From NCBI GenBank assembly GCA_003282205.1, contig QBZW01000001.1:93205-157204 (forward strand): DNA of 64,000 nt, in the 5' to 3' direction. Of this stretch, positions 7,164 to 14,378 are shown one piece after another (position 1 is the first letter of the stretch; each line of letters begins with the position of its first letter). This DNA is from Pelagibacteraceae bacterium AG-337-G04. GTDB taxonomy: Bacteria > Pseudomonadota > Alphaproteobacteria > Pelagibacterales > Pelagibacteraceae. The notes beneath the pieces are model-generated. The model saw only the letters and a program-made list of their open reading frames with translations, searched no databases and had not been told where the DNA came from. The position numbers and the translations under genes are program-made.

Positions 7164-7939
7164 TGATCATTAGCTCATGGAATGTAAATTCTATTAGAGC
7201 AAGAATACTTAATGTTCAGGAATACTTAAAAAAGTTCAATCCTGACATTGTATTAACTCAAGAGATAAAAACTAAAGAGGAAACTTATCCATTTGATGAT
7301 ATTAAAAAATTAAAATATGAAAGTTATGTATTTGGACAAAAAAGTTACAACGGTGTTGCTATACTTTCCAAAAAAAAATTAGATAAAATCGAAAAAGATA
7401 TATTTAAAGATAAAAACAAACAATCGAGAATAATTACAGCAGATGCAAAATATAAATCTAAAATTATTAAAATTATAAATATCTATACACCAAATGGTAA
7501 CCCGGTTGATACTGAAAAATATGATTACAAATTATATTGGCTAACCAGTTTAATAAAAAAACTTAAAACACTTTTAAAAAGTTATGATAATATAATTATC
7601 GCAGGTGACTTTAACATAATACCTTCTGCTGAAGATGTTCACGACCCCAAAGGATATGAAAATGACGCTCTTTTTAGAATTGAGATTAGGAAAAAATTAA
7701 GAGAAATATTTAATTTAGGATTTCACGATGCATTTAGATATATTTATCCAGATAAAGAGGAATATACTTTTTGGGATTACACAAGTGGCGCTTGGCAAAA
7801 AAATAATGGTATGAGGATTGATCACTTTTTAGTGACCAATAGTTTACTGAATAATATTAAGGATGTGAAAGTTAATAAATATCCAAGAGGTAGAGAAAAA
7901 CCATCTGATCATACACCGATTGAATTAGAATTAACTTAA
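7163..7939 (+). CDS. xth: Exodeoxyribonuclease III
   Basis: SWNVNSIR, QEIK, YNGVAI, GDFN, RIDH and SDH motifs. Likely start is the ATG at 7163 overlapping the erpA TAA, not 7133. Confidence 0.96.
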   Translation: MIISSWNVNSIRARILNVQEYLKKFNPDIVLTQEIKTKEETYPFDDIKKLKYESYVFGQKSYNGVAILSKKKLDKIEKDIFKDKNKQSRIITADAKYKSKIIKIINIYTPNGNPVDTEKYDYKLYWLTSLIKKLKTLLKSYDNIIIAGDFNIIPSAEDVHDPKGYENDALFRIEIRKKLREIFNLGFHDAFRYIYPDKEEYTFWDYTSGAWQKNNGMRIDHFLVTNSLLNNIKDVKVNKYPRGREKPSDHTPIELELT

Positions 7940-8929
7940 AGATTTAATTTTATTAACTAGATCCTCATTAATGTGTCTAGGTCCTTTATCTAATCTATTC
8001 TTATGTCTTCTTTCACCAGGAAGTCTGACATCACCCATTGCTTTCATTTTTTCAAAAAATTTTGAAGAATGATCATCCCAATTACTTTGTGATAATTTGT
8101 CTGGAGATATAGCTAAAATGAACTCTCCACCACTTGGAGGACCTCCGTCATTATTATCTTTCTCAGCTGTCTCATAACTAAAATTATCTCCTACTAAGGC
8201 TCCTGCAAGCAATTCGACCATCATTGCAATCCCTGAGCCTTTATAACCGCCGAAAGGCAATAAAACACCCCCATCTACAATTTCAGCAGGATCAGTTGTA
8301 TCTCTTCCCTCTTTTGTTAGTCCTGTTCCTAATGGAACTTTATGACCTTCTCTTTTGGCAACTTGAACTTCACCCATAGCCATTGATGCTGTTGCCATAT
8401 CATAAACGACTGGAGGTTTATTTTTTCTTGGCCAAGCAAATGATATTGGATTTGTTCCAAACAAAGGCTTAATTGCTCCAGCAGGCGCAACAGCCGGTTT
8501 ATATGATGTACATGCAAAAGCGACCAAACCCTGTTCTGCAATCATTTCAGTTTCAGGCCACATAGCTGCCATATGATGCGAATTTGTAATTGCTAAAATC
8601 GCAACACCACTTTCTTTAGCAAGTTTGATTAGTTCTGGAATACTTTTTTTTAAAACCACAGGAGCTAAGCAATTATTTCCGTTTGCTTTAATAACTGATG
8701 CTGATATTTTTTTTATATCAGGCTTGCCTTTACCATTAATTTTTCCACTTTTTAATCCTGCTACGTAAGCTGGAACTCTGAATAAACCATGCGATAAGGA
8801 TCCATCTTTCTCAGCTTTAGTAACTAAGTCTGCCATTATAGTTGCAGTTTCATCATCACAACCACTATTTAAAAAAGTATTTTTTGCTAGATTATAAATT
8901 TCATCTAACTCTAAAGATATATTGCTCAC
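7931..8929 (-). CDS. Ldh_2 (malate/L-lactate dehydrogenase-like) oxidoreductase, DpkA/ComC-like subgroup
   Basis: SHGLFR, SHHMAAMWPE, FGTNPISFAWP, DMATAS and GGYKGSG motifs; GTG start. Substrate cannot be assigned. Confidence 0.88.
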   Translation of the reverse strand: MSNISLELDEIYNLAKNTFLNSGCDDETATIMADLVTKAEKDGSLSHGLFRVPAYVAGLKSGKINGKGKPDIKKISASVIKANGNNCLAPVVLKKSIPELIKLAKESGVAILAITNSHHMAAMWPETEMIAEQGLVAFACTSYKPAVAPAGAIKPLFGTNPISFAWPRKNKPPVVYDMATASMAMGEVQVAKREGHKVPLGTGLTKEGRDTTDPAEIVDGGVLLPFGGYKGSGIAMMVELLAGALVGDNFSYETAEKDNNDGGPPSGGEFILAISPDKLSQSNWDDHSSKFFEKMKAMGDVRLPGERRHKNRLDKGPRHINEDLVNKIKSLS

Positions 8930-8972
8930 ACATCTATTAGATATTATTTAAGATTTATTTCAAATAGAATAT

Positions 8973-9707
8973 TTATTTATTTTTATCTTCCCACTCAAAA
9001 CGTGGAAACGAGTCAAAGATTTTAAAAATACCATTTGACCATTGATTACATACTTTTGAATACTCATCGTCAGTAAGATTTAAGCACTTTTGTGATGCAA
9101 TTTTATATTGGTCTTTTCTATAAACCGTAAAATCAATTGGTGGACCAACTGTTAAATCACTTTTTAATGTTGAGTCCATTGATATTAAAGCACATCTTGA
9201 TGCATCACCAACAGTGACTTCGGGTTTAATAACTCTATCTAAAATTGGTTTCCCGTATTTAACTTCGCCAATAACTAGATATGGCTTGCTATCGGCGGGT
9301 CTTATATAATTTCCTTGAGGGTAAACTAAATATAATTCCATTGGTTGCCCCTTAATCTGACCACCAATAACAAAAGTAGAACCCAGTAATACTGTGTCAG
9401 TGTTTATACCTTTAGGTGATGAATGTTCAATATTTAATGAGCCAATATATGAAGCAATCTGATCAAAATTTTCACAAGTATTTAAATTCATTATTCCAGA
9501 GGAATTCTTCAAATCATTTTGAATTGATTTATAAACTGCTTGAGAAGTTCCTAAATTACCTGAAGTAACAATAATAATTGTTCTATCCCCCACATCATAC
9601 GTGAACATTTTTGAATAAATATTTACGTTATCTAAACCAGCATTCGTTCTTGAGTCTGACGCAAAAACCAATCCGTCTTCTGCTTTGATGCCAATACAAT
9701 AAGTCAT
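8973..9707 (-). CDS. anbu: Proteasome-type Ntn hydrolase (Anbu family)
   Basis: M-TYCIG N-terminus exposes Thr1; Asp17 (ASDSRTNAG) and Lys32 positioned as in Anbu; YPQGN, IGEVKYGKPILDR and STLKSDLTVGPP motifs. Confidence 0.92.
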   Translation of the reverse strand: MTYCIGIKAEDGLVFASDSRTNAGLDNVNIYSKMFTYDVGDRTIIIVTSGNLGTSQAVYKSIQNDLKNSSGIMNLNTCENFDQIASYIGSLNIEHSSPKGINTDTVLLGSTFVIGGQIKGQPMELYLVYPQGNYIRPADSKPYLVIGEVKYGKPILDRVIKPEVTVGDASRCALISMDSTLKSDLTVGPPIDFTVYRKDQYKIASQKCLNLTDDEYSKVCNQWSNGIFKIFDSFPRFEWEDKNK

Positions 9708-9819
9708 TTGAATAATTTACTATTGAATTATAACATTAATTAATAATCTATTAAAAGCATAACTGCTATATCTATTATGCATTTGCTTATTCTATTCAAT
9801 TATTAAACATTATCTCGTT

Positions 9820-11265
9820 ATGGTCTCTAAACTATGGAAAAACTATAATGCTAAAAATGCTTATGATGGTTATTTCACAAAAGATAATAAGCTAAGAAAA
9901 CATGCAACTATAATTTCAGGTATCCTAGAAAGATACGGTAAGAAAAAACTTCAGGAAATAGAAAAGAACTGCCAAAGTACAATTAGTGCAAGAGGAATAA
10001 ATTTTAGAGTTTATGCTGCTAACAATCGTGCGGAAGAAAAAAAATGGCCATTGGATATAATTCCTAGAATAATACCAAAAAAACAATGGAACAAAGTTTC
10101 AAAAGGTTTGCAACAAAGAGTGAAGGCCTTAAATTTATTTATTGATGATGTTTATAATCAAAAGAAAATTTTTAAGGATAATGTAGTACCAAAAGAAATA
10201 ATTTTTAAATCTCCATTCTATGTAAAGGAATGTGATGGATTTTCACCAAAGCATAAAGCCTGGTCAAATATTTCAGGAGTTGATTTAATAAGAAATTCCA
10301 ATGGTGATTATTTAGTTTTAGAGGACAATTTAAGAGTTCCATCAGGAGTTTCCTACATGCTTGAGAATAGAATGGTAATGAGGGATGTTTTTCCAGAATT
10401 ATTTACAAGATATAAAGTTGCTTCTATCCATCAATACACAAACAAATTATTTAATTGCATGGTTGAATGTATTCCAAAAAAAACATCAAATCCTCATATG
10501 GTTGTTCTAACACCAGGTATTTATAATTCGGCCTACTTTGAACATTCATTTTTAGCTGAGCAAATGGGTATAGCTTTAGTGGAAGGAAAAGATTTGTTTG
10601 TTGAAAATGATATTGTCTATATGAAGACAGTCAAGGGACCCCTTAAGGTTGATTGTATTTATAGGCGATTAGATGACAATTTTTTAGATCCAAAAGTTTT
10701 TTTTAAAGGATCATTAATTGGTGTTCCTGGACTTTTTAAAAGTTGGAGAAAAGGAAATGTCGGTGTTATAAATGCGATAGGAACAGGTGTGGCTGATGAC
10801 AAAGTTGTTTATTCTTACGTAAATAAAATGATAGTTTATTATTTAGGAGAACAACCTATTTTGAATCAAGTAGAAACATACCTTTGCCACAACAAATCTG
10901 AGAGAGATTATGTAATTGAAAATATTGGTAAATTAGTTGTAAAGCCTGCAAATGCATCTGGGGGTTATGGAATTATGATTGGTCCAAAAGCTCCAAAAAA
11001 AGAACGAGAGGAAGTAATTGCCAAAATTAAGAAAAATCCAAGAGAGTATATTGCTCAACCATTAGAAACTCTTTCAACAGCTCCAACAATAACTGAAGAT
11101 GATATAGAACCTAGGCACCTTGATTTAAGACCTTTTGTTTTAAGTGGAAAAACTACATACGTAAGCACTGGTGGACTAACTAGAGTAGCTCTAAGAAAAG
11201 GTAGTACAATTGTAAATAGTTCTCAAGGTGGTGGTTCTAAGGATACACTTATTGTTGAAACATAA
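9820..11265 (+). CDS. Circularly permuted type 2 ATP-grasp ligase
   Basis: PLDIIPRII, GLQQRVKALNLFIDDVY, VLEDNLRVPSGVSYMLENR, LTPGIYNSAYFEHSFLA, YRRLDD, SGGYG, HLDLRPF and VNSSQGGGSKDT motifs; 481 aa, no fused alpha-E domain. Confidence 0.93.
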   Translation: MVSKLWKNYNAKNAYDGYFTKDNKLRKHATIISGILERYGKKKLQEIEKNCQSTISARGINFRVYAANNRAEEKKWPLDIIPRIIPKKQWNKVSKGLQQRVKALNLFIDDVYNQKKIFKDNVVPKEIIFKSPFYVKECDGFSPKHKAWSNISGVDLIRNSNGDYLVLEDNLRVPSGVSYMLENRMVMRDVFPELFTRYKVASIHQYTNKLFNCMVECIPKKTSNPHMVVLTPGIYNSAYFEHSFLAEQMGIALVEGKDLFVENDIVYMKTVKGPLKVDCIYRRLDDNFLDPKVFFKGSLIGVPGLFKSWRKGNVGVINAIGTGVADDKVVYSYVNKMIVYYLGEQPILNQVETYLCHNKSERDYVIENIGKLVVKPANASGGYGIMIGPKAPKKEREEVIAKIKKNPREYIAQPLETLSTAPTITEDDIEPRHLDLRPFVLSGKTTYVSTGGLTRVALRKGSTIVNSSQGGGSKDTLIVET

Positions 11266-11307
11266 TAATATTCATTTTATTTAAGAATTAATCAGCCTAA
11301 ATTCATT

Positions 11308-12099
11308 TTGATGAAAAATAACATAATAATTTTTACTGATCTAGACGGATCTTTGTTAAATACTCAAAATTTTAAATTCGAAAAAGCTAAATCACTGGTT
11401 AAAAAAATTATTAAAGATAGTAATTTTATAATTCCTAATTCAAGTAAAACAGAGTTAGAGATAAAAAATTTTATTAAGAAGTTAAAAATTAAACTTCCTT
11501 TTATAAGCGAAAATGGTTCTGAAATTCATAATCTAAATACTATCGAAAAAAAACTTCCTAAAAAGATTACAATTGCTCGTGATAGAAATACAATTTTGAA
11601 AATTTTTTTAAAAAATATGAGTGAAGAGATTTTAATAAAATGTGATTTTTTATATAAAATGGACAACAAAAAAAAAACTAAAATTTTAGGTTTAAAAGGA
11701 AAAGATTTAATTGCTAGTTCAAAACGAAAATTTACTTATCCTTTTATTTTTAAAGGAGATAATAAACTAAAAAAATTATTATTAAAAAAAACTTACAAGG
11801 CAGGTTTAGGTATTCAACAAGGAGGTAGAGTGATGAATTTAGGCGATAATGTAACTAAAGGGATGGCAATTAAAAAAACATTAAATTTTATTAAATCAGT
11901 TAATAAAAATAAGATTACAACTATTGCTGTTGGCGATAATCAGAATGATTTAAGTATGTTAAAAGTTGTAAAATATCCCTGTATTGTTTCAAATAGATTT
12001 ATCAAAATTAATAACAAAAATAAAATTTATACTAATAAAAAGGCTCCAGAGGGATGGATTGTGGTGGTCAAAAAGGCAATGGATAAAATAAATAAATAA
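11308..12099 (+). CDS. gpgP: HAD-IIB glucosyl/mannosyl-3-phosphoglycerate phosphatase
   Basis: FTDLDGSLL (DxD), NSSKT, ENGS and GDNQNDLSML motifs; adjacent to the synthase. Could equally be called mpgP. Confidence 0.82.
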   Translation: MMKNNIIIFTDLDGSLLNTQNFKFEKAKSLVKKIIKDSNFIIPNSSKTELEIKNFIKKLKIKLPFISENGSEIHNLNTIEKKLPKKITIARDRNTILKIFLKNMSEEILIKCDFLYKMDNKKKTKILGLKGKDLIASSKRKFTYPFIFKGDNKLKKLLLKKTYKAGLGIQQGGRVMNLGDNVTKGMAIKKTLNFIKSVNKNKITTIAVGDNQNDLSMLKVVKYPCIVSNRFIKINNKNKIYTNKKAPEGWIVVVKKAMDKINK

Positions 12100-12113
12100 A
12101 TTAATTTATAAAT

Positions 12114-13334
12114 ATGGGTGATTTTTCTCAAAACGGAATAGTAGCAAATCTTCATGATTTTTCGATACGAAGTACTGAGCAAATCGAAAAAGACTTATTA
12201 AAATTTTCTAAAGAGAGAAAATTAGAATTAATTTTACCTTGTCTTTATTCAGAACTTGAAGGAGATGCATTACCAAACATTGTTAATGAAATAAGCAAAA
12301 CTAAATATCTTAATCATGTCATAATTGGCTTAGATCAAGCTAATAAAGCACAAGCTAAAAAGGCATGGAAATTTTTTAAAAAGTTAAAAACATCTTTTTC
12401 TATTTTATGGAATGATGGTCCTAAATTAAAAAAATTAGATAAAGAACTAAAGAGTATTGATCTTGCCCCAAAACAAATGGGTAAAGGAAGAAATGTTTGG
12501 TATTGCATTGGTATGGCAATAGCTAGGGATGAAGCTAGATCTGTTGCTTTACATGACTGTGATATAAAAACTTATGATAGAAGGTTGTTAGCAAAACTTT
12601 TTTATCCTGTAGAAAACCCATTATTTAATTATGAATTTTGCAAAGGTTATTATCCAAGAATTGCTGATAATAAAATGCATGGAAGAGTAGCTAGATTGCT
12701 TGTTAACCCACTACTCACAGCAATGGAAAAAACAATAGGAAAAAGTGATTACATTGACTTTATGAAGTCATTTAAATACCCATTAGCTGGAGAATTTTCA
12801 TTTAGGAGAAACATTTTACCCGAACTTAGAATTTCATCAGATTGGGGAATTGAAATTGCTATTTTATCTGAAATGCAGAGAAATTATTCATCTAACAACA
12901 TATGCCAAGTAGAGTTAGCTGATAACTACGATCATAAACATCAGATATTATCTATCAAGGATAGTTCAAAGGGGTTATCTAAAATGTCTATTGATATAAT
13001 TAAAACATTAGTAAGAAAACTTGCAACACAAGGCTATTCTTTTAGCAAAGAAACTTTTAGATCAATTAAAGCAACGTATTATAGATCTGCTTTAGATTTA
13101 ATTGATATTTATAGAAGTGATGCTCAAATGAACGGATTAAAGTTTGATTCTCACAATGAAGAAAAAACAGTTGAGTTATTTGCTTTAAATATAATGAAAG
13201 CTGGTGAATCATTTTTTGAAAATCCGATGGATACACCTTTTATCCCAACATGGCATAGAGTAAAAAGTGCAATCCCTGATTTCTTAGACAGATTTAAGGA
13301 AAGCGTTAAAGCAGATAATAAAGAATTTAAATAA
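12114..13334 (+). CDS. gpgS: Glycosyl-3-phosphoglycerate synthase (glucosyl- or mannosyl-PG)
   Basis: MGDFSQNG..LHDF start; LPCLYSELEG, GKGRNVW, LHDCD (DxD), KGYY.R..GRV.RL, YPLAGEF and DWGIE motifs. Sugar specificity not provable from sequence. Confidence 0.82.
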   Translation: MGDFSQNGIVANLHDFSIRSTEQIEKDLLKFSKERKLELILPCLYSELEGDALPNIVNEISKTKYLNHVIIGLDQANKAQAKKAWKFFKKLKTSFSILWNDGPKLKKLDKELKSIDLAPKQMGKGRNVWYCIGMAIARDEARSVALHDCDIKTYDRRLLAKLFYPVENPLFNYEFCKGYYPRIADNKMHGRVARLLVNPLLTAMEKTIGKSDYIDFMKSFKYPLAGEFSFRRNILPELRISSDWGIEIAILSEMQRNYSSNNICQVELADNYDHKHQILSIKDSSKGLSKMSIDIIKTLVRKLATQGYSFSKETFRSIKATYYRSALDLIDIYRSDAQMNGLKFDSHNEEKTVELFALNIMKAGESFFENPMDTPFIPTWHRVKSAIPDFLDRFKESVKADNKEFK

Positions 13335-13343
13335 TCCCAATCT

Positions 13344-14378
13344 TTAACAACCTTTAAAAGATTTAGACATATTTCTTATTAAATCAAAGTATAAATCTTT
13401 TCCTGGGGTTAGAGTTGCACCAAGTGGATCTAAAACACCTGTTTTAATATCCATATCTTTAGCAACAGCATTAATTATATCAGGATTAAATTGTGGCTCT
13501 GAAAATACACATGCAACTTTATCATGTTCTATCACTTCTCTTATTTCTGCTAATTGTTCTGCACCAGGCATTACATCAGTATTAACTGTAAATGCACCAA
13601 GAACATTAACATTAAATCTTTTTTCAAAGTATTGATAAGCGTCATGGAAAACTATTGAAGATGTGCTTTGATTTAAATCAGTCATAACTTCAATAGTAAG
13701 TTTATCGATATCTTTAAGAGCTTTTTTTAAATTACTTTTATAAGTTGAAGCATTTTTTGCATCATTTTCAATTAAATGTTCAACCATTTCATTTAAAATT
13801 ACTTTAGCATTAATAGGGTCTAACCAAATGTGTGGATCATGTTCACCGTGGTGATGTCCTTCATGACCGTCGTGATCATCATGATCATCTTTTTTCTTGT
13901 GGTCGTGATCATCATGGTCATCTTCTTTTTTAGCATGATCATCGTGGTCATCATGATCGTCTTTTTTCTTGTGGCCATGATCGTCGTGTCCATGATCATC
14001 ATGGTCGTCAAAAATATTTCTCTCTCTGAATTTTAATTTGTTTAATCCTTTAATTTCTAATAACTCGATTTTTTCTGCTTTTTTAGCAATTGAGTCTAAA
14101 GGCTTTTCTAGAAAATTTTCTAAATCCTCACCTACCCAAAAAACAATATCTGCATTTTGTAACATTTTTGCATGTGAGGGTTTTAAAGCAAAACCGTGTG
14201 GCGATGCATAACCATCAACTATAAGATCTGGCTTAGCTACTCCATCCATTAAATAACTAGCTAATGAATGAATAGGTTTTATTGATGCTACAACTTTAAT
14301 ATCAGCATTTGCTGATGTAAAAAAAGTTAAAAATGATAAGAATGATAAGATTATTGTGGATTTTGTTAGATTTTTCAT
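13344..14378 (-). CDS. znuA: Zinc ABC transporter substrate-binding protein
   Basis: Signal peptide; VVASIKPIHSL, SPHGFALKPS, His/Asp-rich loop, DPHIWLDP and FHDAYQYF motifs. Confidence 0.96.
   Translation of the reverse strand: MKNLTKSTIILSFLSFLTFFTSANADIKVVASIKPIHSLASYLMDGVAKPDLIVDGYASPHGFALKPSHAKMLQNADIVFWVGEDLENFLEKPLDSIAKKAEKIELLEIKGLNKLKFRERNIFDDHDDHGHDDHGHKKKDDHDDHDDHAKKEDDHDDHDHKKKDDHDDHDGHEGHHHGEHDPHIWLDPINAKVILNEMVEHLIENDAKNASTYKSNLKKALKDIDKLTIEVMTDLNQSTSSIVFHDAYQYFEKRFNVNVLGAFTVNTDVMPGAEQLAEIREVIEHDKVACVFSEPQFNPDIINAVAKDMDIKTGVLDPLGATLTPGKDLYFDLIRNMSKSFKGC
13866..13973 (-). repeat. Three imperfect 36-nt tandem units within the ZnuA His/Asp loop (HKKKDDHDDHDD / HAKKEDDHDDHD / HKKKDDHDDHDG)
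   Basis: Read directly: units at 13938-13973, 13902-13937 and 13866-13901. Confidence 0.9.

Follow-up and report, generated by a model that had tools for sequence, protein, structure and literature searches.

An Anbu/ATP-grasp pair and a candidate glucosylglycerate cassette, very probably independent modules, at a flexible site of a SAR11 genome

The locus and its two modules

The locus described here lies in a stretch of 64,000 nucleotides (hereafter the window) from Pelagibacteraceae bacterium AG-337-G04. It consists of a divergent gene pair, encoding the proteasome-like protein Anbu and an ATP-grasp ligase, followed by gpgP and gpgS, a candidate cassette for glucosylglycerate synthesis. 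The source genome had a size of 1.33 Mb and was 96% complete, its closest public relatives being single-cell genomes of Pelagibacteraceae (SAR11). The window had a G + C content of 29% and was 97% coding. In a preliminary description, ligase, phosphatase and synthase genes had been placed in one co-directional row, interrupted by 42 and 14 bp only and lacking a terminator hairpin. This order, the coordinates of the open reading frames and the gene identifications were confirmed on re-examination. Below, L numbers denote excised loci of relatives, g1 the genus of the window, and g5, g7 and g11 further genera of the family.

The first module comprised Anbu and the ligase. Anbu, an ancestral proteasome beta-subunit homologue and N-terminal nucleophile (Ntn) hydrolase, was encoded on the minus strand (8973..9707). 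It matched PDB 5loy, 5nyj and 5lox (E 7e-63), its sequence began with MTYCIG, and the residues Thr1, Asp17 and Lys32 were all present. Across a divergent intergenic region (9708..9819), with a conserved promoter/operator-like core at 9757-9791, the plus strand encoded a circularly permuted ATP-grasp type 2 ligase of the COG2308 type (9820..11265; 481 amino acids, aa). The ligase matched the full PF14403 model (CP_ATPgrasp_2, E 1.5e-155) and PDB 3n6x (E 1.8e-142).

An A + T-rich spacer of 42 bp without a hairpin (11266..11307, plus strand) separated the ligase gene from the second module, gpgP-gpgS. On the same strand, gpgP (11308..12099; 263 aa) encoded a candidate glucosyl-3-phosphoglycerate phosphatase of the HAD-IIB, MPGP family. 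Its match to TIGR01486 (E 7e-44, 150 bits) was just below the cut-off of 164.75, and it had the DxD motif FTDLDGS. The likely start codon was the ATG at 11311, which would make the gap to the ligase gene 45 bp instead of 42. After a further 14 bp came gpgS (12114..13334, plus strand; 406 aa), a candidate glucosyl-3-phosphoglycerate synthase of the Methanococcoides/Persephonella type. It matched the GpgS_Meth model NF040724 over its full length (E 7e-109; its 364 bits lay below the equivalog cut-off, 700), the HDCD motif was conserved in the alignment, and no mannosyl-specific model outscored NF040724. All four genes were under purifying selection, with ratios of nonsynonymous to synonymous substitution rates (dN/dS) of 0.03 for Anbu, 0.02 for the ligase, 0.11 for gpgP and 0.014 for gpgS, computed against a relative with unsaturated synonymous divergence (L049 for Anbu).

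Anbu and the ligase formed a divergent pair in every locus examined, across at least eight flank contexts. Among the 40 nearest genomes, 10 members of the window's genus, the window's genome included, had the ligase, and Anbu was found in exactly the same 10, always adjacent and divergent. The flanks of the pair varied over 10 congener loci and 20 further loci of the family, and included carB, a CN-hydrolase, zur, znuA, a phosphoenolpyruvate (PEP) carboxylase and a glycoside hydrolase family 13 (GH13) gene, among others. The ligase thus belongs with Anbu, as its known partner. In the literature, Anbu shares an operon with genes for Alpha-E, a transglutaminase and an ATP-grasp protein, and no function has been demonstrated for it yet (PMC5666114, PMC6376114). 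As cited there from Valas & Bourne 2008 and Iyer et al. 2009, the canonical Anbu operon consists of a cpATP-grasp (COG2308), Alpha-E (COG2307), a transglutaminase-like protein (COG1305) and Anbu (via PMC5666114, PMC6376114).

Profile searches for Alpha-E (PF04168) and for transglutaminase-like proteins (PF01841, Transglut_core) gave no match anywhere in the window's genome, and a transglutaminase from the sister family, used as tblastn query, had no match in any Anbu locus examined. We then compared 201 Pelagibacteraceae genomes with a completeness of at least 80%. Alpha-E was present in nine, exactly those congeners whose ligase was 61-63% identical to that of the window, and always directly downstream of the ligase gene. 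It was found in none of the ~70 family genomes with a window-type ligase (74-95% identical, five genera). A sister family, from the same taxonomic order, had the classical operon of ligase, Alpha-E and transglutaminase, its ligase being 48% identical to the window's, and it had neither Anbu nor GpgS. A module that has neither Alpha-E nor a transglutaminase is a modestly new variant of the Anbu system, and a literature search found no paper linking SAR11 and Anbu. Since the reduced module is under purifying selection, Alpha-E and the transglutaminase-like protein appear dispensable for its core function in the SAR11 lineage.

The nine Alpha-E-bearing congeners represented a second type of Anbu module within the genus, with Anbu divergent to the 61-63% identical ligase, followed by Alpha-E and a tartrate-dehydrogenase-like gene (TIGR02089, over cut-off; seen at L046:4152-8432 in genome G103). 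These genomes, G103 and eight other complete congeners, did not encode GpgS. In one g7 metagenome-assembled genome (MAG; L039:5906-7349, genome G195), the ATP-grasp gene was broken by several stops, and the adjacent gpgP, gpgS and Anbu were intact. This ligase is either a pseudogene or the product of a MAG assembly error.

The gpgP-gpgS pair was equally fixed. We recovered 80 gpgPS loci, with one genome per species, and gpgP adjoined and preceded gpgS in all of them. Unrelated to the window were 41 of these loci: two from SAR116, 38 from Gammaproteobacteria (Alteromonas, Paraglaciecola, Pseudoalteromonas, Shewanella, Oceanospirillales, Cellvibrionales and others) and one from a record labelled Flavobacterium. 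All 41 had the operon gpgP-gpgS-GH13, and the GH13 gene was also found in most SAR11 loci. It encoded a sucrose-phosphorylase-like protein of 574 aa, similar to GH13_18 phosphorylases (TIGR03852 E 4e-49, under cut-off). In SAR116 and many Gammaproteobacteria, a GH13_18 phosphorylase-like gene is thus a regular companion of the marine GpgS type. Glucosylglycerate phosphorylases of GH13_18 (EC 2.4.1.352; Franceus et al. 2017, as reviewed in PMC7178133) are reported to be encoded frequently beside gpgS and gpgP (PMC7178133). A metagenomic protein of 991 aa (P0121) carried a GpgS domain, 55% identical to that of the window, fused to a GH13 alpha-amylase-family domain, and ties glucosylglycerate synthesis to a GH13 partner in the manner of a Rosetta stone.

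In SAR11, the neighbours of gpgPS were the GH13 gene, a MalK-type ATP-binding cassette (ABC) transporter, or a GH63 gene similar to glucosylglycerate hydrolases (NF047898 E 1e-91), the latter at L023, L062, L063 and L067. The GH13 gene was absent from the window locus and had no match in the window's genome. Another contig of this genome (G000, contig C4:124534-129397) encoded, at its end, a GH63 glucosylglycerate-hydrolase-like protein together with a sugar ABC binding protein, and the same GH63/ABC cluster lay directly beside gpgP-gpgS in L062, L063 and L067. The cluster suggests that external glucosylglycerate is taken up and hydrolysed besides being synthesized, and the GH63 enzyme is likely the glucosylglycerate sink of the genome. 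With such a sink encoded on another contig, Anbu is not needed as hydrolase.

A homologue search with the window's GpgS returned only near-identical SAR11 metagenome proteins, and a literature search combining Pelagibacter with glucosyl-3-phosphoglycerate found nothing. The window's gpgP was only 41-47% identical to that of congeners, while gpgS was 78-82% identical. We further compared the gpgP alleles of the window (11308-12099), L052 (9202-10008) and L015 (5508-6302). Against L052, gpgP was 62% and gpgS 99.3% identical. The synonymous divergence (dS) was 1.55 for gpgP and 0.40 for gpgS. This pattern points to a putative recombination breakpoint between gpgP and gpgS, or to a replacement of the gpgP allele.

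Distribution of the adjacency and variants of the site

Among the 201 family genomes, the ligase was detected in 81 and GpgS in 39. Both were found in 30 genomes. Nine had GpgS without the ligase, six of these being 97-99% complete, and ~51 had only the ligase. In genus g5, 10 of 16 genomes encoded the ligase and none of the 16 encoded GpgS. The order ligase>gpgP>gpgS was present in 14 of the 30 genomes with both: in all 11 from g7, and in three of 16 from the window's genus. In three genomes 2-4 kb lay between the modules and their order differed, with gpgPS placed downstream of Anbu or, as gpgPS-GH13, convergent on it. Two genomes had them 330 and 833 kb apart, and in 11 they were on different contigs. 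The g7 locus, zur-znuB-znuC / znuA / gpgS-gpgP-ligase / Anbu, had the same layout as the window. The order is therefore most readily understood as one inherited arrangement, and not as the result of repeated assembly.

Outside the family, no ATP-grasp or Anbu homologue was found at any of the 41 unrelated gpgPS loci, with DNA examined up to 10 kb on each side. Three genomes had both genes, 222 kb apart, ~306 kb apart, and on different contigs. A set of 400 Pseudomonadota genomes, at least 90% complete, contained this GpgS type in 41 and the ligase in 204 genomes. The ligase occurred in 23 of the 41 GpgS-positive genomes (56%) and in 181 of the 359 GpgS-negative ones (50%), showing no enrichment, and the two genes were adjacent in none of the 19 genomes in which this could be assessed. 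The preliminary description had raised the recurrence of this adjacency in unrelated genomes as a point to check; by these counts it is confined to kin, and the co-occurrence signal seen within the family vanishes at the phylum scale.

The block is flanked on its left by a gene for a dehydrogenase of the Ldh_2 family (7931..8929, minus strand; PF02615 E 8e-96), of the malate/L-lactate/sulfolactate type, which is co-directional with Anbu and lies 43 bp downstream of it. The right flank is znuA (13344..14378, minus strand; NF007091 with 278 bits, over cut-off), convergent to gpgS and 9 bp from its stop codon, followed by znuC, znuB and zur. ZnuA had a long, repeat-like His/Asp-rich loop (HDDHGHDDHGHKKKDDHDDHDDH...), and its whole-protein length ranged from 319 to 367 aa among relatives.

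Four states of this znuA-side site were found in Pelagibacteraceae: (i) both modules, in the window and in 11 g7 genomes; (ii) ligase and Anbu only, in L044 and L047 from g7, where the stop codon of the ligase gene was 5 bp from that of znuA; (iii) gpgPS only, in L052 and L088; and (iv) neither module, in L016, where Ldh_2 was directly beside znuA. The complete Anbu/ligase-gpgP-gpgS block also occurred between other outer flanks, PEP carboxylase and GH13 in L015, L040 and L041, compared with Ldh_2 and znuA in the window. These near-isogenic natural variants provide both, either or neither module at one and the same site.

One of these variants, L052, came from a single-cell genome, with a GpgS 99.3% identical to the window's and flanks of ~92% nucleotide identity. 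Its order was Ldh_2 / gpgP-gpgS / znuA, the coding sequences of Anbu and the ligase both being missing. The intergenic region between Ldh_2 and gpgP, 103 bp in length, held a 35-nt stretch that matched window positions 9757-9791 in 33 of 35 bases (E 6e-11), at the same distance of 28 nt before the start codon, here that of gpgP. The simplest reading is that a window-like ancestor lost both coding sequences and the shared promoter region stayed, so that it would now serve the downstream genes on either side. That L052 keeps gpgPS without the other two genes supports a glucosylglycerate synthesis that can do without ligase and Anbu. The joint absence of Anbu and ligase from a close relative also fits their mutual dependence. 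The same junction of promoter core and gpgP was found in L053, a 5.4 kb contig of AG-430-J18, in which gpgS and a COG0523 block were inverted relative to a truncated gpgP, possibly as a chimera of single-cell amplification. Due to this inverted order and the truncated genes, we relied on L052 and not on L053.

SAR11 genomes carry flexible genomic islands and hypervariable regions. The gene puuD, for example, is mentioned in hyper-variable regions of SAR11 (PMC12636525). At L049 (11237-13518), and also in L050 and L051 (96% nucleotide identity), three genes were inserted between gpgS and znuA, encoding a COG0523/ZigA-like GTPase, a 347-aa protein without family match and an 87-aa protein. The insert was absent from the window, where gpgS ends at 13334 and znuA begins at 13344. 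It is probably part of the zinc regulon, and another sign of a hotspot.

The preliminary description had offered, as one of two options, a new chemistry in which the ligase joins an amine or amino acid to the glycerate carboxylate of the osmolyte and Anbu cleaves the conjugate again, so that nitrogen would be stored reversibly. The ligase and gpgPS are indeed adjacent here and co-occur at the family level, ATP-grasp enzymes in general activate carboxylates, and the lineage of the window-type ligase has lost Alpha-E, which a change of substrate could in principle accompany. However, about 50 family genomes, including those of g5, have ligase and Anbu without GpgS, and the nine genomes with GpgS alone, mostly near complete, show the converse. 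The ligase stays with Anbu, each module occurs alone at the same site, and L052 cleanly lacks ligase and Anbu next to a GpgS 99% identical to the window's. Beyond the family neither adjacency nor co-occurrence was seen. Further, the match to PDB 3n6x and the identity of 48% to the ligase of the Alpha-E/transglutaminase operon mark the window's enzyme as an unremarkable Anbu-operon ligase, and dedicated glucosylglycerate-degrading enzymes, GH13_18-like and GH63-like, accompany gpgPS instead. We therefore consider this chemistry highly improbable. As it fails the comparison, it gives no basis for pursuing the locus on that ground.

Transcription across the site

The core at 9757-9791 (GCATAACTGCTATATCTATTATGCATTTGCTTATT) contains the inverted repeat GCATAA-N12-TTATGC, and it aligned across the Anbu/ligase intergenic regions of genera g1, g5, g7 and g11. 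No further copy of the palindrome was found in the whole genome, even at 5 mismatches. A shared transcription-factor site, that is, a regulon motif, was considered for this element and dropped in favour of homology by descent, there being no second copy. For the ligase promoter, several -35/-10 spacings fitted poorly, and we labelled the region a promoter/operator-like core. It may be an operator or a promoter, and its 35 nt offer a concrete handle on expression in cultured SAR11.

Neither a riboswitch nor any other RNA family was detected when 8800-13500 was compared with Rfam (E<=5), and no terminator-like site was found inside 9820-13334. Neither spacer had a more stable fold than its shuffled versions (z +0.61 and +0.47). 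The co-directional gaps in the window had a median of 1 bp, and 45 of 54 neighbour pairs were at most 45 bp apart, so that the 42 bp between ligase and gpgP fall in the longer fifth. As tight spacing is the rule in the window, the short gap between the ligase gene and gpgP carries little functional weight.

In the spacer between the modules, the hexamer TAAATT weakly resembled a -10 element, at a distance of 7 nt from the ATG at 11311. In all genomes sharing the adjacency this spacer was clade-specific, 28-42 bp long, and each version had a -10-like hexamer 6-7 nt before the ATG, which in g7 had a TG extension (TGTTAAAAT). Such hexamers are weak evidence, since A + T-rich hexamers are expected by chance at 29% G + C, and the count of promoter-like sequences did not exceed that of shuffles.

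The spacers bear on the possibility that gpgP-gpgS is transcribed separately, from a promoter of its own in the 42-bp spacer or in the 3' end of the ligase gene, the adjacency then having no regulatory meaning. We give this reading a fair share of the probability, though less than half. Against the window median, 42 bp is long for a co-directional pair, every clade has its own spacer with a hexamer close to the ATG, and gpgPS works from other promoters in other genomes. However, no terminator follows the ligase gene, the hexamers are within chance expectation, and the layout of L052 and L053 suggests that the upstream promoter suffices for gpgPS. The L052 junction supports an expression of gpgPS from the ligase promoter, and so speaks for read-through in the window. 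On balance we judge it somewhat more probable that gpgP-gpgS receives read-through transcription from the ligase promoter.

The other option of the preliminary description was a co-regulation of nitrogen-starvation genes. In this case, the order would have been kept by selection because both modules serve nitrogen-poor conditions, with one promoter and without shared chemistry. Compatible with this, the order is maintained in all 11 g7 genomes with both genes and in three or four from g1, the block is found with two different outer flanks, and a ligase-type promoter core directly precedes gpgP in L052 and L053. In Pseudomonas putida, Anbu is reported to be up-regulated when nitrogen is limiting (PMC5666114, PMC6376114). 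Glucosylglycerate has been described as the osmolyte of nitrogen-poor marine cyanobacteria, as cited from Klahn et al. 2010 in PMC12636525, and the genes for its synthesis are reported there as specific to offshore SAR11 genera. However, the order is often broken in g1, where 13 of the 16 genomes with both genes have the modules apart or re-ordered. Each module persists alone, and the spacer holds a possible promoter of its own. The search for a nitrogen-responsive element gave no candidate, with no Rfam match over the scanned region and a promoter core that is unique in the genome. Co-regulation as such thus agrees with the promoter element in front of gpgP, and its nitrogen-responsive part found no counterpart in the sequence; that the order was selected for this purpose seems unlikely.

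The joint locus and its known counterparts

Together, these results very probably reflect two independent accessory modules side by side at a flexible Ldh_2/znuA site of a SAR11 genome, each of a kind already known. Their layout points to shared transcription at most; it does not suggest a new pathway for an amidated osmolyte. The first module would be a minimal Anbu system, in which Anbu and the cpATP-grasp ligase are expressed divergently from one conserved intergenic region. For Anbu systems, the literature predicts that the ligase forms amide bonds on peptides or proteins at the expense of ATP and that Anbu is the corresponding amidase or peptidase. The chemistry of the window's module would be that of the Anbu system generally. 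The second module, gpgP-gpgS, is predicted to synthesize glucosylglycerate in two steps from nucleoside diphosphate glucose (NDP-glucose) and 3-phosphoglycerate, and turnover of glucosylglycerate would fall to the GH63 enzyme from the other contig. With read-through from the ligase promoter, the modules may be co-expressed and yet share no substrate.

Two observations weigh against this independence. Within the family, the ligase was present in 30 of 39 GpgS-positive genomes and in 51 of 162 GpgS-negative ones, an odds ratio of ~7 that is uncorrected for phylogeny, and 14 of the 30 family genomes with both modules share the order ligase>gpgP>gpgS, the modules of three to five further genomes lying within 2-6 kb of each other in a different order. 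The co-occurrence is real, yet it is confounded by shared ancestry, the ecology of the offshore clades and physical linkage, as neighbouring genes are recovered or lost as a unit when an assembly is incomplete. One could also imagine that in the Alpha-E-less SAR11 the ligase took on a new substrate, a small molecule from the surroundings of glucosylglycerate metabolism, and that Anbu cleaves the amide formed. Cells would produce this molecule themselves or, if they lack gpgPS, import it. If true, the ancestral operon ligase>gpgP>gpgS would specify a cycle of a nitrogen-conjugated osmolyte. The family co-occurrence (30/39 against 51/162), uncorrected for phylogeny, leaves a little room for such a lineage-specific link, which would be most surprising, and we hold to two independent modules.

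What the analysis leaves as useful is the reduced Anbu module itself. The function of the Anbu system has been a puzzle since 2008, and one of the ocean's most abundant bacterial groups has cut it down to Anbu and an ATP-grasp ligase, under strong purifying selection.

Three known systems can be compared with the locus. As in the canonical Anbu operon, an Anbu with the Thr1/Asp17/Lys32 triad is strictly linked to a full-length CP_ATPgrasp_2 ligase. The window differs from it in having two genes only, divergently oriented, and no Alpha-E or transglutaminase-like gene genome-wide. With the SAR11 flexible islands, the site shares accessory cassettes that are present or absent between conserved flanks, and extra cassettes in near-identical relatives. 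With the GpgS/GpgP plus GH13_18 pathway, it shares the fixed gpgP-gpgS pair, which has its GH13 partner in unrelated marine loci and in most SAR11 loci. The window departs from this pathway in that it has no GH13 gene, a GH63 gene on contig C4 instead, and a strongly divergent gpgP.

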